DNA of 64,000 nucleotides. Source: Phycisphaerae bacterium. Its GTDB lineage: Bacteria > Planctomycetota > Phycisphaerae > UBA1845. A program made the translations under genes and the position numbers. The notes beneath the pieces are model-generated. The model worked only from the letters and a program-made list of their open reading frames with translations, was not told the origin of the DNA and did no database searches. Shown one piece after another: positions 1,352-64,000 of this stretch; position 1 is the first letter of the stretch; every line of letters starts with the position of its first letter. Location of the stretch: NCBI GenBank assembly GCA_963666835.2, contig CAXXGO010000006.1:672001-736000 (forward strand), in the 5' to 3' direction.

Positions 1352-1537
1352 GCTCTTGGTCCTTTCGCCGGGCAAAGACAGGTGGTAATTCGACTTCTTA
1401 ACCCTCTTATCGGCTGCCGCCCGGCTGAGTTTTTGCGAGAGCATGCGGGTGCCCCCATACCTGGCGGGTGCCCCATCCATCCAGGCGTTCGCTGGGCTGG
1501 TGCGGCCGCACGGGTTCGCCGCCGGGATGGGTGGGGG

Positions 1538-3464
1538 GAAAGCGCCGGTAAGCCGGTGAGGAGTAGTGGATGAGAGAGCCATACGGTGAAGGAATAGCGA
1601 ACCACACCGACCCCGAGTCATACTGTGGTGTCCGCAAGGGCATGGCGGGAGCGTTGACAGGGGCACGTGCGGGCCGGCCATTGAGCCGTGAAAGCCTTTT
1701 ACTCCGGAGTGCCGACGCCGTCCCCCAAGGCGGAAGGCAACACCGGAGGGCGTCGTTAACGCGAGACGCCTTTCGGACTCCGCGCGGTCTTAGAACCCGA
1801 GCACGCACGGAAACTCCTCACGCGGAACCCGGGAGATCCCGCGTTCGGCCTCGAACATGGCATCGAGGTCCGCAGTGTGAATCCATAGGAGCACGACACT
1901 GATGCACGGGCGCGGGAAGTCGGACAGGCCCATAGTACCGAAGAAGACTGCGAACAACGGTGATCCCCCGGCGGGGAGGTCGTCCGCGGAGCAGTTGGAG
2001 GAAAGGGGCCTGGCCAAGGGCAACTCGATTCGACACGACAGGCACCGTACGCAGAGCCGGGATCGTCTGCAAAGCGGGTTGGATCGGGTACGACAGGCAG
2101 CGGTAAAGGATAAGGATTTACAGTTCACCACGCTTTGGCACCACGTCTATGATGTCGCTCGCCTCCGGGAGGCGTACTTGAGCCTCAAGCATGCTTCGGC
2201 ACCGGGGATGGACGGCATGACATGGGAGGCGTACGGCAGGGACCTAGAAGAACACCTCTTGGATCTGTCGGCACGTCTACAGCGCGGAGCGTACCGAGCG
2301 AGGCCGGTCAAGCGGGTCTACATTCCGAAACCCGATGGACGGCAGAGACCAATAGGGATTCCCGTGTTGGAAGACAAGATCGTCCAACGGGCGATGACCG
2401 ATGTGCTCTCGGCTGTCTACGAGGCAGACTTCCTCGGGTTCTCCTACGGATTTCGACCAGGACGGGACGCCCATCAGGCGTTAAGTGCCCTGACTGTCGG
2501 CATCGAGAGGAAGAAGGTGAATTGGGTGCTGGATGCAGACATTCGTGGATTCTTCGATGCCATAGACCACGATTGGCTGATCAAGTTCGTCGAGCACCGG
2601 ATCGCAGACCAGCGTGTCGTGCGTCACGTGAAGAAGTGGCTGAACGCCGGCGTGCTGGAGGACGGGTGTCGAAGGGACACGGAGACGGGGACGCCGCAGG
2701 GGGGCAGTATCAGCCCGCTATTGGCGAACATCTATCTCCATTACGCCTTCGACTTGTGGGCCCGCCAATGGCGACGGACGCAAGCTCACGGAGATGTGAT
2801 TATCGTGAGATATGCGGACGACTTCGTGGTGGGATTTCAACAGCGAGAGGATGCCGAGCGGTTTCGGGATGAGCTGACGGATCGCCTCCGGAAGTTCAAG
2901 CTGGAGCTACATGCGGACAAGACTCGTCTGATTGAGTTCGGCCGTTTTGCGTCGACCAATCGCAAGCGAGAAGGCCGCGGCAAACCGGCGACCTTCGAGT
3001 TTCTGGGTTTTCGCCACATCTGTGGCAAGACCCGGCGTGGGAGGTTCACGGTACTACGGCAGACTGTCGCGAAACGACGGCGTGCGAAGCTCAAAGCGAT
3101 TAAGCAAGAGCTTCGGCGACGTATGCATGCCCCCGTCCGAGAGGTGGGCGCGTATTTGCGGGCGGTGGTTCGCGGGTACTATCAGTATTATGCGGTACCG
3201 CGGAACTACCCGGCCTTAACGGCATTTCGGGATGAGGTTGTCCGTCTTTGGCGCTGGACGCTCCGGCGTCGCAGCGAGAAGACTCGGATTACCTGGGCCC
3301 GCATGAACCGTTTGGCCAAGCAGTGGATACCTGCTCCCAAAATCCTACATCCTTACCCCGACCGACACCTGGCCGTTATGACCCAAGGCAGGAGCCCAGT
3401 GCGGTAGTCCCGCACGCTGGGATCTGTGGAGGGGGTCCCGGGTAACCGGGATTCCTACTCCGAC
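1538..3464 (+). mobile_element. Group II intron (IIB-like, En-minus), copy 1
   Basis: DV GGAGCCCAGTGCGG-TAGT-CCCGCACGCTGGGATC with AGC triad; DVI with bulged A (3457); ends in AC. EBS1 CCCCCA (1722-1727) is complementary to the 5' exon TGGGGG. Boundaries come from comparing filled and empty sites. Confidence 0.93.
1902..3407 (+). CDS. ltrA: Group II intron reverse transcriptase/maturase
   Basis: RPIGIP..EDKIVQ, SYGFRPG, GTPQGGSISPLLANIYL, RYADD and FEFLGF motifs, X domain, no HNH. True start may lie downstream; the stop codon falls inside DV. Confidence 0.97.
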   Translation: MHGRGKSDRPIVPKKTANNGDPPAGRSSAEQLEERGLAKGNSIRHDRHRTQSRDRLQSGLDRVRQAAVKDKDLQFTTLWHHVYDVARLREAYLSLKHASAPGMDGMTWEAYGRDLEEHLLDLSARLQRGAYRARPVKRVYIPKPDGRQRPIGIPVLEDKIVQRAMTDVLSAVYEADFLGFSYGFRPGRDAHQALSALTVGIERKKVNWVLDADIRGFFDAIDHDWLIKFVEHRIADQRVVRHVKKWLNAGVLEDGCRRDTETGTPQGGSISPLLANIYLHYAFDLWARQWRRTQAHGDVIIVRYADDFVVGFQQREDAERFRDELTDRLRKFKLELHADKTRLIEFGRFASTNRKREGRGKPATFEFLGFRHICGKTRRGRFTVLRQTVAKRRRAKLKAIKQELRRRMHAPVREVGAYLRAVVRGYYQYYAVPRNYPALTAFRDEVVRLWRWTLRRRSEKTRITWARMNRLAKQWIPAPKILHPYPDRHLAVMTQGRSPVR

Positions 3465-3654
3465 ACGGATACGAACTAGGGAGAATCCCGCATTCCGAAA
3501 TCGGTCCCCCACCCTTCGCCTGTGGCGTAGTGCGTACGCCGCAATCGCACCTGTATACGGGGCTCTTCGTCCATTGCGATATGACCCGGGGCGAAGGATG
3601 GGGCACCGACCTGCGGGTAAACCCGGGTCTCGGTGCCGGGAACGGTGGATCGGC

Positions 3655-12745: not shown

Positions 12746-12906
12746 GGGTGACCCGTCCTTCGCCCTGGGGAATATCGCATTAAACAGAAAGCCCGGTATT
12801 CAGATGCGGTTACGGTATGCGCGCTACGTTCCAGGCGAAGGGTGGGGAGTCGATCGCAAAACGCGAGTGCCTGTCGGGTCTCCGTCCGTCCCCCACACCG
12901 GCGGCG
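12746..12906 (-). repeat. Empty copy of the intron-target element
   Basis: Reverse complement ...ccggtgtggggg^acggacgg...ccccacccttcgcc...cccagggcgaaggacgggtcaccc aligns with the right flanks of intron copies 1 and 4. Confidence 0.8.
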
Positions 12907-14647: not shown

Positions 14648-16574
14648 GAAAGCGCCGGTAAGCCGGTGAGGAGTAGTGGATGAGAGAGCCATACGGTGAA
14701 GGAATAGCGAACCACACCGACCCCGAGTCATACTGTGGTGTCCGCAAGGGCATGGCGGGAGCGTTGACAGGGGCACGTGCGGGCCGGCCATTGAGCCGTG
14801 AAAGCCTTTTACTCCGGAGTGCCGACGCCGTCCCCCAAGGCGGAAGGCAACACCGGAGGGCGTCGTTAACGCGAGACGCCTTTCGGACTCCGCGCGGTCT
14901 TAGAACCCGAGCACGCACGGAAACTCCTCACGCGGAACCCGGGAGATCCCGCGTTCGGCCTCGAACATGGCATCGAGGTCCGCAGTGTGAATCCATAGGA
15001 GCACGACACTGATGCACGGGCGCGGGAAGTCGGACAGGCCCATAGTACCGAAGAAGACTGCGAACAACGGTGATCCCCCGGCGGGGAGGTCGTCCGCGGA
15101 GCAGTTGGAGGAAAGGGGCCTGGCCAAGGGCAACTCGATTCGACACGACAGGCACCGTACGCAGAGCCGGGATCGTCTGCAAAGCGGGTTGGATCGGGTA
15201 CGACAGGCAGCGGTAAAGGATAAGGATTTACAGTTCACCACGCTTTGGCACCATGTCTATGATGTCGCTCGCCTCCGGGAGGCGTACTTGAGCCTCAAGC
15301 ATGCTTCGGCACCGGGGATGGACGGCATGACATGGGAGGCGTACGGCAGGGACCTAGAAGAACACCTCTTGGATCTGTCGGCACGTCTACAGCGCGGAGC
15401 GTACCGAGCGAGGCCGGTCAAGCGGGTCTACATTCCGAAACCCGATGGACGGCAGAGACCAATAGGGATTCCCGTGTTGGAAGACAAGATCGTCCAACGG
15501 GCGATGACCGATGTGCTCTCGGCTGTCTACGAGGCAGACTTCCTCGGGTTCTCCTACGGATTTCGACCAGGACGGGACGCCCATCAGGCGTTAAGTGCCC
15601 TGACTGTCGGCATCGAGAGGAAGAAGGTGAATTGGGTGCTGGATGCAGACATTCGTGGATTCTTCGATGCCATAGACCACGATTGGCTGATCAAGTTCGT
15701 CGAGCACCGGATCGCAGACCAGCGTGTCGTGCGTCACGTGAAGAAGTGGCTGAACGCCGGCGTGCTGGAGGACGGGTGTCGAAGGGACACGGAGACGGGG
15801 ACGCCGCAGGGGGGCAGTATCAGCCCGCTATTGGCGAACATCTATCTCCATTACGCCTTCGACTTGTGGGCCCGCCAATGGCGACGGACGCAAGCTCACG
15901 GAGATGTGATTATCGTGAGATATGCGGACGACTTCGTGGTGGGATTTCAACAGCGAGAGGATGCCGAGCGGTTTCGGGATGAGCTGACGGATCGCCTCCG
16001 GAAGTTCAAGCTGGAGCTACATGCGGACAAGACTCGTCTGATTGAGTTCGGCCGTTTTGCGTCGACCAATCGCAAGCGAGAAGGCCGCGGCAAACCGGCG
16101 ACCTTCGAGTTTCTGGGTTTTCGCCACATCTGTGGCAAGACCCGGCGTGGGAGGTTCACGGTACTACGGCAGACTGTCGCGAAACGACGGCGTGCGAAGC
16201 TCAAAGCGATTAAGCAAGAGCTTCGGCGACGTATGCATGCCCCCGTCCGAGAGGTGGGCGCGTATTTGCGGGCGGTGGTTCGCGGGTACTATCAGTATTA
16301 TGCGGTACCGCGGAACTACCCGGCCTTAACGGCATTTCGGGATGAGGTTGTCCGTCTTTGGCGCTGGACGCTCCGGCGTCGCAGCGAGAAGACTCGGATT
16401 ACCTGGGCCCGCATGAACCGTTTGGCCAAGCAGTGGATACCTGCTCCCAAAATCCTACATCCTTACCCCGACCGACACCTGGCCGTTATGACCCAAGGCA
16501 GGAGCCCAGTGCGGTAGTCCCGCACGCTGGGATCTGTGGAGGGGGTCCCGGGTAACCGGGATTCCTACTCCGAC
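14648..16574 (+). mobile_element. Group II intron, copy 2
   Basis: Matches copy 1 at offset 13110; the only difference noticed is a silent C>T (15254 vs 2144). Same TGGGGG^A insertion site. Confidence 0.93.
15012..16517 (+). CDS. ltrA: Group II intron reverse transcriptase/maturase
   Basis: Identical 501-aa protein with YADD. Confidence 0.97.
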   Translation: MHGRGKSDRPIVPKKTANNGDPPAGRSSAEQLEERGLAKGNSIRHDRHRTQSRDRLQSGLDRVRQAAVKDKDLQFTTLWHHVYDVARLREAYLSLKHASAPGMDGMTWEAYGRDLEEHLLDLSARLQRGAYRARPVKRVYIPKPDGRQRPIGIPVLEDKIVQRAMTDVLSAVYEADFLGFSYGFRPGRDAHQALSALTVGIERKKVNWVLDADIRGFFDAIDHDWLIKFVEHRIADQRVVRHVKKWLNAGVLEDGCRRDTETGTPQGGSISPLLANIYLHYAFDLWARQWRRTQAHGDVIIVRYADDFVVGFQQREDAERFRDELTDRLRKFKLELHADKTRLIEFGRFASTNRKREGRGKPATFEFLGFRHICGKTRRGRFTVLRQTVAKRRRAKLKAIKQELRRRMHAPVREVGAYLRAVVRGYYQYYAVPRNYPALTAFRDEVVRLWRWTLRRRSEKTRITWARMNRLAKQWIPAPKILHPYPDRHLAVMTQGRSPVR

Positions 16575-16760: not shown

Positions 16761-16833
16761 TGGGCTGTAGTTCAATTGGTAGAACGCCTGACTCTGGATC
16801 AGGAGGTTCCAGGTTCGAGTCCTGGCAGCTCAG
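16761..16833 (+). tRNA. tRNA-Gln (anticodon CTG)
   Basis: Acceptor TGGGCTG/CAGCTCA; D arm AGTTCAATTGGTAGAAC; anticodon arm CCTGA-CTCTGGA-TCAGG; T loop GTTCGAGTCC; CCA not encoded. Confidence 0.95.
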
Positions 16834-24218: not shown

Positions 24219-26145
24219 GAAAGCGCCGGTAAGCCGGTGAGGAGTAGTGGATGAGAGAGCCATACGGTGAAGGAATAGCGAACCACACCGACCCCGAGTC
24301 ATACTGTGGTGTCCGCAAGGGCATGGCGGGAGCGTTGACAGGGGCACGTGCGGGCCGGCCATTGAGCCGTGAAAGCCTTTTACTCCGGAGTGCCGACGCC
24401 GTCCCCCAAGGCGGAAGGCAACACCGGAGGGCGTCGTTAACGCGAGACGCCTTTCGGACTCCGCGCGGTCTTAGAACCCGAGCACGCACGGAAACTCCTC
24501 ACGCGGAACCCGGGAGATCCCGCGTTCGGCCTCGAACATGGCATCGAGGTCCGCAGTGTGAATCCATAGGAGCACGACACTGATGCACGGGCGCGGGAAG
24601 TCGGACAGGCCCATAGTACCGAAGAAGACTGCGAACAACGGTGATCCCCCGGCGGGGAGGTCGTCCGCGGAGCAGTTGGAGGAAAGGGGCCTGGCCAAGG
24701 GCAACTCGATTCGACACGACAGGCACCGTACGCAGAGCCGGGATCGTCTGCAAAGCGGGTTGGATCGGGTACGACAGGCAGCGGTAAAGGATAAGGATTT
24801 ACAGTTCACCACGCTTTGGCACCATGTCTATGATGTCGCTCGCCTCCGGGAGGCGTACTTGAGCCTCAAGCATGCTTCGGCACCGGGGATGGACGGCATG
24901 ACATGGGAGGCGTACGGCAGGGACCTAGAAGAACACCTCTTGGATCTGTCGGCACGTCTACAGCGCGGAGCGTACCGAGCGAGGCCGGTCAAGCGGGTCT
25001 ACATTCCGAAACCCGATGGACGGCAGAGACCAATAGGGATTCCCGTGTTGGAAGACAAGATCGTCCAACGGGCGATGACCGATGTGCTCTCGGCTGTCTA
25101 CGAGGCAGACTTCCTCGGGTTCTCCTACGGATTTCGACCAGGACGGGACGCCCATCAGGCGTTAAGTGCCCTGACTGTCGGCATCGAGAGGAAGAAGGTG
25201 AATTGGGTGCTGGATGCAGACATTCGTGGATTCTTCGATGCCATAGACCACGATTGGCTGATCAAGTTCGTCGAGCACCGGATCGCAGACCAGCGTGTCG
25301 TGCGTCACGTGAAGAAGTGGCTGAACGCCGGCGTGCTGGAGGACGGGTGTCGAAGGGACACGGAGACGGGGACGCCGCAGGGGGGCAGTATCAGCCCGCT
25401 ATTGGCGAACATCTATCTCCATTACGCCTTCGACTTGTGGGCCCGCCAATGGCGACGGACGCAAGCTCACGGAGATGTGATTATCGTGAGATATGCGGAC
25501 GACTTCGTGGTGGGATTTCAACAGCGAGAGGATGCCGAGCGGTTTCGGGATGAGCTGACGGATCGCCTCCGGAAGTTCAAGCTGGAGCTACATGCGGACA
25601 AGACTCGTCTGATTGAGTTCGGCCGTTTTGCGTCGACCAATCGCAAGCGAGAAGGCCGCGGCAAACCGGCGACCTTCGAGTTTCTGGGTTTTCGCCACAT
25701 CTGTGGCAAGACCCGGCGTGGGAGGTTCACGGTACTACGGCAGACTGTCGCGAAACGACGGCGTGCGAAGCTCAAAGCGATTAAGCAAGAGCTTCGGCGA
25801 CGTATGCATGCCCCCGTCCGAGAGGTGGGCGCGTATTTGCGGGCGGTGGTTCGCGGGTACTATCAGTATTATGCGGTACCGCGGAACTACCCGGCCTTAA
25901 CGGCATTTCGGGATGAGGTTGTCCGTCTTTGGCGCTGGACGCTCCGGCGTCGCAGCGAGAAGACTCGGATTACCTGGGCCCGCATGAACCGTTTGGCCAA
26001 GCAGTGGATACCTGCTCCCAAAATCCTACATCCTTACCCCGACCGACACCTGGCCGTTATGACCCAAGGCAGGAGCCCAGTGCGGTAGTCCCGCACGCTG
26101 GGATCTGTGGAGGGGGTCCCGGGTAACCGGGATTCCTACTCCGAC
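24219..26145 (+). mobile_element. Group II intron, copy 3
   Basis: Same sequence and same TGGGGG^ACGGAC insertion site. Confidence 0.93.
24583..26088 (+). CDS. ltrA: Group II intron reverse transcriptase/maturase
   Basis: Identical 501-aa protein. Confidence 0.97.
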   Translation: MHGRGKSDRPIVPKKTANNGDPPAGRSSAEQLEERGLAKGNSIRHDRHRTQSRDRLQSGLDRVRQAAVKDKDLQFTTLWHHVYDVARLREAYLSLKHASAPGMDGMTWEAYGRDLEEHLLDLSARLQRGAYRARPVKRVYIPKPDGRQRPIGIPVLEDKIVQRAMTDVLSAVYEADFLGFSYGFRPGRDAHQALSALTVGIERKKVNWVLDADIRGFFDAIDHDWLIKFVEHRIADQRVVRHVKKWLNAGVLEDGCRRDTETGTPQGGSISPLLANIYLHYAFDLWARQWRRTQAHGDVIIVRYADDFVVGFQQREDAERFRDELTDRLRKFKLELHADKTRLIEFGRFASTNRKREGRGKPATFEFLGFRHICGKTRRGRFTVLRQTVAKRRRAKLKAIKQELRRRMHAPVREVGAYLRAVVRGYYQYYAVPRNYPALTAFRDEVVRLWRWTLRRRSEKTRITWARMNRLAKQWIPAPKILHPYPDRHLAVMTQGRSPVR

Positions 26146-41503: not shown

Positions 41504-41595
41504 CGCCGCGGTGACCCTTCCTTCGCCCGGTGTTATATCGCAGTGGACAGAAACTCTCGTACACAGATAAAGACGCGGCACCCGCTTTGCGTTTT

Positions 41596-41722
41596 GGGCG
41601 AAGGGTGGGGAATCGATTGTGGAAGGCGGGTGTCCGTCGGATTATCGTCCGTCCCCCACCCATCCCGGCGGTGAGCTGACGCGGTTGTTCGAGGGCGGCG
41701 GGCGCCGGTATGGGGCACCCGC
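41596..41722 (-). repeat. Empty copy of the intron-target element with a perfect target
   Basis: Reverse complement ccgccgggatgggtggggg^acggacgataatccga equals the ligated-exon context of the filled sites. Confidence 0.88.
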
Positions 41723-46892: not shown

Positions 46893-47076
46893 GCAGTCCT
46901 CCCGGCAACGACCGTGTTGGCCGCCGGTACGAGGTATTTCCCCGGGAGGTCATCGGCCCGGCGGTTACCATGTAGGATATCGGTCTATCCCCGATGCCGG
47001 ATAAGCAAACGGCGCTTTTCTCGGACCGACAGGCCTGGGCAGCCACGTAACGCAGGCTTTTAGCCTGCTAGAGCGT

Positions 47077-47367
47077 GGGTGCCCCGTCCTTCGCCCTGGG
47101 CGATATCGCAGTAGGCTGAGAGGTCTCGTGTATAGGCGTAGTTGCGGCATGCCGGGTGCCATGGTCCACGCTTGCGTGGCCATGAAGGTCGGCAGCCCCG
47201 TAGGGCACGGTCGAGGCACGAGACCTGCCGCAAAGGCGCGCGGCGCGCGAAAACTGATTGCGGAACAGGATCACCTCTCGGATCTTCATCCGTCCCCCCA
47301 CCCATTCCGGCGGGGAATCGGCGAGGCTGTTCCAGGTCGGCCCGCGCCGGAATGAAAGGGCACCCGC
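47077..47367 (-). repeat. Empty copy of the intron-target element (6-G variant) with an internal GTAG REP at 47200-47229
   Basis: Both terminal inverted repeats are present; target reads ggaatgggtgggggg-acggatg. Confidence 0.82.
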
Positions 47368-47415
47368 CGCCACATTGATTTACCGGTTGCACTTCGCTTT
47401 GATGGACAATTCGGG

Positions 47416-54753: not shown

Positions 54754-56680
54754 GAAAGCGCCGGTAAGCCGGTGAGGAGTAGTGGATGAGAGAGCCATAC
54801 GGTGAAGGAATAGCGAACCACACCGACCCCGAGTCATACTGTGGTGTCCGCAAGGGCATGGCGGGAGCGTTGACAGGGGCACGTGCGGGCCGGCCATTGA
54901 GCCGTGAAAGCCTTTTACTCCGGAGTGCCGACGCCGTCCCCCAAGGCGGAAGGCAACACCGGAGGGCGTCGTTAACGCGAGACGCCTTTCGGACTCCGCG
55001 CGGTCTTAGAACCCGAGCACGCACGGAAACTCCTCACGCGGAACCCGGGAGATCCCGCGTTCGGCCTCGAACATGGCATCGAGGTCCGCAGTGTGAATCC
55101 ATAGGAGCACGACACTGATGCACGGGCGCGGGAAGTCGGACAGGCCCATAGTACCGAAGAAGACTGCGAACAACGGTGATCCCCCGGCGGGGAGGTCGTC
55201 CGCGGAGCAGTTGGAGGAAAGGGGCCTGGCCAAGGGCAACTCGATTCGACACGACAGGCACCGTACGCAGAGCCGGGATCGTCTGCAAAGCGGGTTGGAT
55301 CGGGTACGACAGGCAGCGGTAAAGGATAAGGATTTACAGTTCACCACGCTTTGGCACCATGTCTATGATGTCGCTCGCCTCCGGGAGGCGTACTTGAGCC
55401 TCAAGCATGCTTCGGCACCGGGGATGGACGGCATGACATGGGAGGCGTACGGCAGGGACCTAGAAGAACACCTCTTGGATCTGTCGGCACGTCTACAGCG
55501 CGGAGCGTACCGAGCGAGGCCGGTCAAGCGGGTCTACATTCCGAAACCCGATGGACGGCAGAGACCAATAGGGATTCCCGTGTTGGAAGACAAGATCGTC
55601 CAACGGGCGATGACCGATGTGCTCTCGGCTGTCTACGAGGCAGACTTCCTCGGGTTCTCCTACGGATTTCGACCAGGACGGGACGCCCATCAGGCGTTAA
55701 GTGCCCTGACTGTCGGCATCGAGAGGAAGAAGGTGAATTGGGTGCTGGATGCAGACATTCGTGGATTCTTCGATGCCATAGACCACGATTGGCTGATCAA
55801 GTTCGTCGAGCACCGGATCGCAGACCAGCGTGTCGTGCGTCACGTGAAGAAGTGGCTGAACGCCGGCGTGCTGGAGGACGGGTGTCGAAGGGACACGGAG
55901 ACGGGGACGCCGCAGGGGGGCAGTATCAGCCCGCTATTGGCGAACATCTATCTCCATTACGCCTTCGACTTGTGGGCCCGCCAATGGCGACGGACGCAAG
56001 CTCACGGAGATGTGATTATCGTGAGATATGCGGACGACTTCGTGGTGGGATTTCAACAGCGAGAGGATGCCGAGCGGTTTCGGGATGAGCTGACGGATCG
56101 CCTCCGGAAGTTCAAGCTGGAGCTACATGCGGACAAGACTCGTCTGATTGAGTTCGGCCGTTTTGCGTCGACCAATCGCAAGCGAGAAGGCCGCGGCAAA
56201 CCGGCGACCTTCGAGTTTCTGGGTTTTCGCCACATCTGTGGCAAGACCCGGCGTGGGAGGTTCACGGTACTACGGCAGACTGTCGCGAAACGACGGCGTG
56301 CGAAGCTCAAAGCGATTAAGCAAGAGCTTCGGCGACGTATGCATGCCCCCGTCCGAGAGGTGGGCGCGTATTTGCGGGCGGTGGTTCGCGGGTACTATCA
56401 GTATTATGCGGTACCGCGGAACTACCCGGCCTTAACGGCATTTCGGGATGAGGTTGTCCGTCTTTGGCGCTGGACGCTCCGGCGTCGCAGCGAGAAGACT
56501 CGGATTACCTGGGCCCGCATGAACCGTTTGGCCAAGCAGTGGATACCTGCTCCCAAAATCCTACATCCTTACCCCGACCGACACCTGGCCGTTATGACCC
56601 AAGGCAGGAGCCCAGTGCGGTAGTCCCGCACGCTGGGATCTGTGGAGGGGGTCCCGGGTAACCGGGATTCCTACTCCGAC
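54754..56680 (+). mobile_element. Group II intron, copy 4
   Basis: Same sequence; inserted in a complete target element spanning ~54680-56824. Confidence 0.93.
55118..56623 (+). CDS. ltrA: Group II intron reverse transcriptase/maturase
   Basis: Identical 501-aa protein. Confidence 0.97.
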   Translation: MHGRGKSDRPIVPKKTANNGDPPAGRSSAEQLEERGLAKGNSIRHDRHRTQSRDRLQSGLDRVRQAAVKDKDLQFTTLWHHVYDVARLREAYLSLKHASAPGMDGMTWEAYGRDLEEHLLDLSARLQRGAYRARPVKRVYIPKPDGRQRPIGIPVLEDKIVQRAMTDVLSAVYEADFLGFSYGFRPGRDAHQALSALTVGIERKKVNWVLDADIRGFFDAIDHDWLIKFVEHRIADQRVVRHVKKWLNAGVLEDGCRRDTETGTPQGGSISPLLANIYLHYAFDLWARQWRRTQAHGDVIIVRYADDFVVGFQQREDAERFRDELTDRLRKFKLELHADKTRLIEFGRFASTNRKREGRGKPATFEFLGFRHICGKTRRGRFTVLRQTVAKRRRAKLKAIKQELRRRMHAPVREVGAYLRAVVRGYYQYYAVPRNYPALTAFRDEVVRLWRWTLRRRSEKTRITWARMNRLAKQWIPAPKILHPYPDRHLAVMTQGRSPVR

Positions 56681-62650: not shown

Positions 62651-64000
62651 CAATAATGTCCGGAACCCGTTGATTTCACGGCGGATCCGGGCTCGCTGGC
62701 GTGAGCCGCGAGCTGAGGCGGTGCGCGGGCGGCGCAGGCCCCGTGGAGCGACGGGCGCAAGCTGCCTTACTCGGCGCATACCGATAGCCGCGCTGGTCGG
62801 GCTGCGGACCGGCGCGGAACGCTACTTCCTGTTTTTTTCGCGTTGCCGTTCGGCGGCGCGGCGGCGTTCACGACGCCGTCGCTCAGCAATCTCGAACGAT
62901 CCTTGCCGCGGCATTAACCCGGAAACTACGGCTGAGACAATCACAAAGTCGTATTTCGATGGCCGCGAGCCAGTCTCGACCGCGATCAGCAGCAACGCCA
63001 CCATCATCACGTAGACCTGCACGGTCATCCCGGATTCGTCTTCCGAGAAGAAATGCTGGAAACTCGCAGAACTCTTCAGCCATCGGAAGAACAGCTCTAC
63101 TTGCCACCGGTGCTGGTAGATCAGCGCGATCATCCAGGCCGGGATGTCCAACAAGTCCGTAAGCAAACGCATCCGCTTCTGTTTACCTTCGCGGTCGGTG
63201 AACTCGACCACTACCTCACGTAAACGCGGTAAGTCGTGCGCCTCGGGATCAACGCCCAAGGTAACCTCGGTGTCGATCGCAACACCTGCGGCCACATCCT
63301 CATCGCTGAGCGGTTTGACCCTTACGGAATTGGTATGCACGTTCTTACGCAAACGCACGACGAAGGAACTCTTGACCTTAATGATTTCCTCGAGGAGGCC
63401 ATACGATTGAAAACCGCGGTCCATGACGTACAGGCAATCGGGCTCAAGATGCGTTCCGAGCACCTTGGCTTCACGCATCTGTCCATCCGTGACCGTGCAA
63501 CATTCGGGAACGCCCTTGAGGACATCGAAATCGACGTGCACGCGGATCTGGCCCTTACGGACCCCCTTCTTCTCGGATTGGTTGTACAACGCCCAGGCGA
63601 TTCGCGGAGCCACCGCGAAGAAGGTGCCGTCGACGGCCAGGAGCTTCTGTGTCAGGCTATCCAGGCGGTTGTCATGCGGTTGGATGTCGGCACGCTCCAC
63701 AAGCGAGTCGATCAACGGCAGCAGTAGGGCCGGGTCGAAGACCTTCTGGGCGTCGGAGACTGTGCTCTTGGGCATCCGAGGGATTCCATACCGCTTTCGA
63801 ATCCGAGGATGTTCGAAGAGATCCTCGATGCTGCGCAGGCCTGTAACCGACGGGTTGAAGAAGGCCAACAGGTGAGCCACCACCAGTTGATCGTAGAACA
63901 CGTCCCGGTTGGCGTGGGCCGGCTGGTCATGGAGGTGTTCGAGGTAGTCTTCGATCAGTCGTGTGTAGCGGATTCCGATCAAATCGGGCGGCAACTTGGC
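62651..64000 (-). mobile_element. IS4-family element, truncated by the window end
   Basis: Transposase ORF plus a candidate terminal repeat beginning CAATAATGTCCGG at 62651. The other end is not in the window. Confidence 0.7.
62822..63994 (-). CDS. IS4-family DDE transposase (5' end probably outside window)
   Basis: AVDGT, VMDRGF, FVVRL and YQHRWQVELFFRWLK (YREK signature). Confidence 0.92.
   Translation of the reverse strand: MPPDLIGIRYTRLIEDYLEHLHDQPAHANRDVFYDQLVVAHLLAFFNPSVTGLRSIEDLFEHPRIRKRYGIPRMPKSTVSDAQKVFDPALLLPLIDSLVERADIQPHDNRLDSLTQKLLAVDGTFFAVAPRIAWALYNQSEKKGVRKGQIRVHVDFDVLKGVPECCTVTDGQMREAKVLGTHLEPDCLYVMDRGFQSYGLLEEIIKVKSSFVVRLRKNVHTNSVRVKPLSDEDVAAGVAIDTEVTLGVDPEAHDLPRLREVVVEFTDREGKQKRMRLLTDLLDIPAWMIALIYQHRWQVELFFRWLKSSASFQHFFSEDESGMTVQVYVMMVALLLIAVETGSRPSKYDFVIVSAVVSGLMPRQGSFEIAERRRRERRRAAERQREKNRK

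Follow-up and report, generated by a model that had tools for sequence, protein, structure and literature searches.

A multi-copy class E group II intron with a 5' end two nucleotides longer than GUGCG

The stretch of DNA analysed (64 kb; the window) contains four copies of a group II intron of 1927 nt, all on the plus strand. Copy 1 occupies 1538-3464, and copies 2, 3 and 4, with the same ends, occupy 14648-16574, 24219-26145 and 54754-56680. In copy 1, domain I matched RF02005 with 169 bits, and domains V-VI matched RF00029 weakly (36.9 bits, E 4e-5, below the gathering score of 40; fold z -3.6). Domain V (3391-3425) has the AGC triad at 3393-3395, and domain VI (3427-3464) shows a bulged branch adenosine, A3457, with a 7-nt spacer to an AC end at C3464. 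The intron encodes an RT/maturase of 501 amino acids (1902-3407, plus strand) with an intact YADD motif; RVT_1 was its sole Pfam match (E 1.6e-40), no endonuclease domain was detected, and the ORF ends at domain V. The loop of the Id3 hairpin (1721-1727) consists of delta (T1721) and EBS1 (CCCCCA, 1722-1727), opposite the IBS1 sequence TGGGGG in the final six bases of the 5' exon (1532-1537). EBS3 (T1790) pairs with A3465, the first base of the 3' exon, and a candidate EBS2 (CCTTTT, 1695-1700) shows weak pairing (score 4.5 of 6) with exon positions -7 to -12. The features of a group II retroelement, namely the domain I core, domain V/VI, a YADD RT, EBS1-IBS1 and EBS3-IBS3, were present. Directly after IBS1, the consensus GUGYG (which has published exceptions) was absent. 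Elsewhere in the window, a tRNA gene (16761-16833) lies just 3' of copy 2, and a DDE transposase gene is located at the window end (62822-63994, minus strand).

Using BLAST, we found 12 full copies of the intron in the genome (6.0 Mb, 7 contigs), each at least 99.8% identical and alike at both ends. Eleven were of normal length, with 0-3 differences from copy 1 and the ORF intact; the twelfth, on contig C1, had a 1-nt insertion. Two 3' fragments of the same intron family (C7:69536-69129 and C7:94469-94516) stand at non-cognate 3' flanks, and the genome has two more distant RT genes (C6:1065660-1066925 and C6:1809121-1809834, with 45% and 31% identity). In one RNA run a small share matched, and no contig crossed the junction.

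The four window copies (starts 1538, 14648, 24219 and 54754) read TGGGGG^GAAAGCGCCGGTAAG at the 5' junction and CTCCGAC at the 3' end. Throughout the genome the same arrangement was seen: in 12 of 12 copies, five G are followed by GAAAGCGCC, and the CTCCGAC end is followed by A. The first-pass annotation had noted a common insert start and CCGAC end for the window copies, no GTGYG at the boundary, retention of the bulged A3457 and an empty site with its junction at 41652/41653. All four observations held: the ends are those of every copy in the genome, every copy starts with GAAAGCG, A3457 lies 7 nt from the 3' end, and the empty site is as described.

The intron inserts into a composite, palindromic repeat between genes, with the five-G site on both arms; ten copies are inserted in one arm and two in the other. 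Around copy 1 the repeat occupies 1464-1537 and 3465-3610, and similar repeats are found at 41509-41700, 12747-12900 and 47075-47370. These provide three empty targets on the minus strand: 41648-41663 (five G, in an intergenic palindromic repeat, junction 41652/41653), 12885-12896 (five G, junction 12889/12890) and 47288-47305, with six G at 47294-47299. The last is the sole six-G case in the genome: among 61 empty targets (minimum of four G), 58 have five G and two have four; 39 pattern matches with two or three G were left out of this count as probable chance. The rejoined flanks of all 12 copies each matched an empty repeat across the junction; for three of the 12 the match was gap-free (94-97% identity), and one best match was the six-G site. 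EBS1, in the register set by relatives, pairs with TGGGGG at six of six positions. The EBS3 column was complementary to the +1 base of the 3' exon in 60 of 67 introns, and this covariation confirmed the 3' end used in subtracting empty from filled sites. In read set X2, possibly from the source sample, a collapsed intron contig began exactly at 1538, with a depth of ~58 versus ~4 for its flanks. By the five-G empty targets, the EBS1-IBS1 pairing and the EBS3 covariation, the boundary is fixed at 1537/1538.

On contig C6, all 10 full copies are on the plus strand, whereas minus-strand sites make up 30 of the 49 empty targets (P 3e-4). This strand bias suggests that homing may depend on the replication fork. 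Most copies sit in regions of almost no GC skew, which gave no indication of leading or lagging strand.

The same genome has a second intron family (family B), 70% identical in domain I, which starts with GAAAGC after GACCTG, at a target with no G run. What remains of it is a 670-nt copy lacking the ORF (C6:259364-260033) and three remnants, i.e., a 140-nt form with only both ends kept (C6:234347-234486) and two 5' stubs (C1:352856, minus strand, and C7:29181), all in a REP-like repeat of ~750 copies. In 749 copies of the GACCTG repeat, the next base was C in 742, GAAAGC followed in 4, and other bases in 3. EBS1 of family B, CAGGTC, is the exact complement of GACCTG. Because the GAAAGC start follows GACCTG at a site with no G run, the first G is part of the intron, independently of the G run at the other target.

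Starting from 164 loci with related RTs, we obtained 125 domain I hits, 113 with the full region and exon, and 102 distinct contexts. EBS1 was defined as the hexamer that follows delta, and the exon was slid against it. One clear register was found in 90 of the 102 contexts, compared with less than 1% per register for shuffled EBS1; most of these relatives are single contigs with no empty allele. A 5' end of normal length was called in 68 introns (GTGCG 37, GAGCG 27, GTGTG 3, GTACG 1), one base longer in 11 (GATGCG 5, GTAGCG 2, GTTGCG 1, GAACAG 1, AAAGCG 1, AGTGCG 1) and two bases longer in another 11 (GAAAGCG 8, GATAGCG 2, GAGAGCG 1), with the two families of this genome in the last group. 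Yeast ai5-gamma likewise starts with GAGCG. These counts include near-copies; collapsed at 85% identity, they became 35, 10 and 10. The first base was G in 88 of the 90, and the 11 introns with two extra bases had 11 different IBS1 hexamers. EBS2 pairing was weak in both forms and no weaker in the long ones, with a mean best score (of 6) of 4.5 in long and 4.37 in normal forms, compared with 3.67 after shuffling. Searches of six related genomes with RF02005 and with DNA found no multi-copy intron with two extra bases. In relative L058 (genome G289), which has an empty tandem copy of its own insertion site directly upstream, the GAGAGCG start was fixed with no appeal to pairing. L058 is inserted in this short tandem duplication (~60 nt 5' of the intron), which looks like the 3' end of a tRNA (att-like).

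The relatives align with no gap at the start, from GCGCC onward, and in the region of the EBS1 hairpin. The epsilon' loop motif of copy 1, GAGC (1649-1652; AAGC in most relatives), would pair through its GC with G1542-C1543. The epsilon' dinucleotide was GC in 89 of the 90 relatives and GT in the sole intron starting with GTACG. A joint change of epsilon' and positions 3-4 was seen in relative L089, the one relative that provides this covariation; four others, the three with GTGTG starts and L031, retained GC. The gap-free alignment and the epsilon' GC together identify G1542-C1543-G1544 as the canonical G3-C4-G5. With G1538 as G1, the linker between G1 and G3 is, by this alignment, three bases (A1539-1541) in place of one, and the lengthened 5' end G-AAA-GCG (1538-1544), supported also by the EBS1 register, makes the intron 2 nt longer than GUGCG or GAGCG introns. 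The alternative put forward earlier, a 4-nt extension ahead of a GCGCC start, was nearly right in regarding the end as extended and overcounted the added bases. It had also been considered that close relatives might commonly start this way. This proved partly so: 22 of the 90 relatives had a lengthened end, which makes it a recurrent trait of the class E clade and not a peculiarity of the window intron.

Several side observations were made among the relatives. L031 and L037 (Bryobacterales) represent a multi-copy intron starting with GAACAG, in which even G3-C4 is absent and epsilon' is still GC. A second intron of G122 (L180-L182), at two or three places, apparently starts with a lengthened end of the GATGCG type; it was not called by EBS1. 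L010 has an odd domain VI, and apparent AA (not AY) 3' ends, placed by profile only, were seen in L001, L004, L005, L007, L010, L031, L093, L104, L113, L116 and others.

By the RT tree, the intron is a bacterial class E intron (IIB-like, with no endonuclease). Its RT is 58% identical to the split RT on plasmid pRmeGR4b, which we took as S.me.I4, and 37% identical to the intact RT there; the split RT is sister to the whole clade (support 98). The class E placement uses this one reference, an S.me.I4 candidate identified by inference from PMC5894124. References of classes D, F/g3, g1 and g2, as named in tables of PMC3552965, were 30-37% identical and all fell outside the clade. The class E traits present are the RT grouping, the lack of a detected endonuclease domain and the 7-nt spacer from A3457 to C3464, a spacer length described for class E in PMC9294222.

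Long forms were scattered over both trees. In the RNA tree (domain I with the variable start left out, 88 rows; bootstrap not settled), the two-base-longer label needed 8 changes, at least 4 of them forced by starred branches. In the RT tree (a quick search of 80 rows, with 29 near-copies removed manually), 6 changes were needed, at least 4 of them forced, and the nearest neighbours of the window intron start with GAGCG (support 92). A single origin of the long end was supported by neither tree; the scatter indicates that long forms arose or reverted several times. L164 has a GAAAGCG end (L164:1305-1325) and shares 94% identity with a GAGCG family. For L120 the best reading is AAAGCG (L120:525-540); over 320 nt of ribozyme this intron is identical to L117, which starts with GAGCG. 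L120 and L164 are both single metagenome contigs, and these may be fresh junction changes or possibly assembly errors.

For this intron, the sequence data establish the boundary and register, an intact RT, the branch A, the epsilon', EBS1 and EBS3 elements and 12 precise recent insertions, and the first-pass annotation was correct in describing a recently mobile intron with an altered 5' end. We consider it likely that the intron is an active class E retroelement with G-AAA-GCG as its true 5' end, that it spreads by reverse splicing of the lariat, and that the length of the linker is tolerated. The 5' splice site would be set by EBS1-IBS1 pairing alone; that this pairing sets the splice site has been stated for a IIC structure (PMC3669008) and for IIE/IIF introns (PMC3753933). 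G1 would still be the base linked to the branch point, A3457, and would pair with the penultimate A. G-C at positions 5-6 would engage in epsilon as usual, with the two additional A looped out between both anchors. The lariat would then fully reverse-splice into the five-G site of the palindromic repeat, which is present in many copies; single-stranded DNA at the replication fork is the probable substrate. Finally, the RT would copy the longer end faithfully, so that it is inherited. Lariat retrohoming gives precise 5' junctions, whereas retrohoming of linear RNA is mostly imprecise (PMC3280974, PMC4748821); with 12 of 12 identical, precise 5' junctions at different sites, the lariat route is favoured. 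Non-templated addition of A by the RT was rejected as the source of the two A, since added bases would differ between copies; moreover, A added to the cDNA reads T on the sense strand (PMC3280974). Within the clade, the linker between G1 and G3 appears free to be 1 to 3 nt long and to have changed several times, and we read it as a tolerated, near-neutral variant.

A bolder reading, which we hold tentatively and rate as somewhat less than probable, is that this widespread clade no longer ties G1 to the epsilon/lambda anchors. Branching and full reverse splicing would then proceed with a position-2 linker of 1, 2 or 3 nt, and new lengths would arise quickly at the 5' integration junction; one relative, otherwise identical in the 5' segment of the ribozyme, starts with A.

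That the longer linker is instead adaptive, tuning the balance between splicing and reverse splicing or the recognition of targets in many-copy repeats, we think unlikely. GAAAGCG does occur in 8 contexts on separate branches, and GAAAGCG/GAAAGC is found in both repeat-targeting families of this genome. However, the compensatory change in domain I envisaged in the first-pass annotation did not emerge: among 55 representatives, no domain I column followed the long form (2195 Fisher tests, best p 0.003). Sister introns starting with GAGCG or GUGCG are likewise multi-copy (the GUGCG sister intron in G167 has three copies), and two long ends lie inside one GAGCG family of 94-100% identity.

Less probable still is that the boundary is right but branching is blocked by the longer end, so that the intron is excised by hydrolysis or as circles and spreads as linear RNA, with the cDNA joined precisely to the 5' exon. 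Three class E introns, assayed in vitro without their protein, spliced by hydrolysis only and gave a linear product (PMC3753933), so lariat formation is not assured, and known introns with an extended 5' end splice by hydrolysis (PMC4024640). Against this, the bulged A and the 7-nt spacer, lost in the published hydrolytic cases, were kept in all ten two-base-longer introns with the 3' end in view; all 12 junctions are precise, whereas linear retrohoming is much less efficient as well as mostly imprecise (PMC3280974, PMC4748821).

Two further explanations carry almost no weight. The suggestion of the first-pass annotation that GAAAG replaces GUGYG base for base, with A3/A4 in place of G3/Y4, fits the consensus by count in having G at positions 1 and 5, but the gap-free alignment of about 100 relatives from GCGCC onward puts the position-5 G on G3, and epsilon' is GC, not UU. 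Equally hard to credit is an exonic first G with an intron start of AAAG (the boundary shift once allowed for in view of the six-G site), or an artefact of assembly or target duplication: the six-G empty site exists, a seventh pair between delta U and G is possible, and L120 is best read with an A start, but five G stand in 58 of 61 empty sites, EBS1 pairs at all six positions in that register, the rejoined flanks of three copies match with no gap, GAAAG, GAGAG or GATAG follows an exon T or C, or a single G fixed by empty sites, in family B and seven relatives, and the X2 high-depth contig, possibly from the source sample, starts at 1538.

Boundary finders keyed to GUGYG would misplace the 5' end in about a quarter of the clade, and the boundaries of classes E and F are already the worst predicted (PMC4028801). 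We found no description of lengthened class E starts in the literature searched, and nothing further on exceptions to GUGYG in PMC7923331 and PMC3245105; examples may already exist in the Zimmerly database, in the boundary figure of PMC4028801, or in Toro 2002, Simon 2008 and Li 2011.

The window intron shares with the class E introns S.me.I4, Cl.be.I2 and Ch.ph.I2 an RT without endonuclease, a IIB-type EBS3 and the 7-nt spacer from branch site to 3' end, and differs from them in a 5' end 2 nt longer than GUGYG. The intron on pRmeGR4b, read by eye, apparently starts with GUACG of normal length. RmInt1 of Sinorhizobium meliloti (class D) homes into a many-copy element with a strand bias. Like the window intron, RmInt1 has no endonuclease and about ten copies per genome (PMC5894124), but its RT is only 34% identical and belongs to a separate clade. 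The groEL-type IIB1 introns (EcKTE56.groEL and Avi.groEL) are also mobile and have extra sequence near the 5' end. In these, however, 300-700 nt are inserted in the basal loop of domain I, the RT has an endonuclease (PMC12584367), and the insert lies downstream of the start motif and is of another kind (PMC12584367, PMC4028801).

Among published accounts, we met exceptions to GUGYG in two sets of introns, both of which have lost the branch site and retromobility. C.te.I1 of Clostridium tetani has an 8-nt spacer followed by an intact GUGYG, a disrupted branch site and, as described in PMC4024640, no EBS2; it is hydrolytic and immobile. In C.te.I1 and the window intron alike, the 5' splice site lies upstream of the canonical register, at a position set by EBS1-IBS1; the window intron differs in having 2 extra bases, an intact branch A and RT, and 12 recent copies. 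Mitochondrial rRNA IIB1 introns (Li et al. 2011) have 5'-terminal insertions of 1-33 nt and have lost the branch A, EBS2 and the RT frame (PMC4024640, PMC4424553). They share with the bacterial introns a repeated, independent lengthening of the 5' end, whereas the bacterial long-start introns are retromobile, with branch A and RT retained. Of the traits of the C.te.I1 and Li 2011 type, the window intron thus has the upstream, EBS1-set splice site, with loss of neither the branch A nor RT-based mobility.

Because the 5'-extended introns they discussed had lost branching and retromobility, McNeil and Zimmerly proposed that, to reverse-splice into DNA, a mobile group II intron may require IBS1 immediately beside GUGYG (PMC4024640). 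By genomic evidence, the window intron is a counter-example to this suggested need for adjacency and a modest but clean challenge to a printed expectation. Uncoupling of G1 from the epsilon/lambda anchors, if true, would overturn the suggestion and offer a natural series for freeing 5' splice sites from a fixed register. On one scaffold the clade provides GUGCG, GAGCG, GAUGCG, GUAGCG, GAAAGCG, GAGAGCG and GAUAGCG, so that the question can be put to the test with a two-base swap; GAAAGCG, GAAGCG, GAGCG, GUGCG, GAAAAGCG and a change of G1 to A could be compared on the scaffold of this intron.
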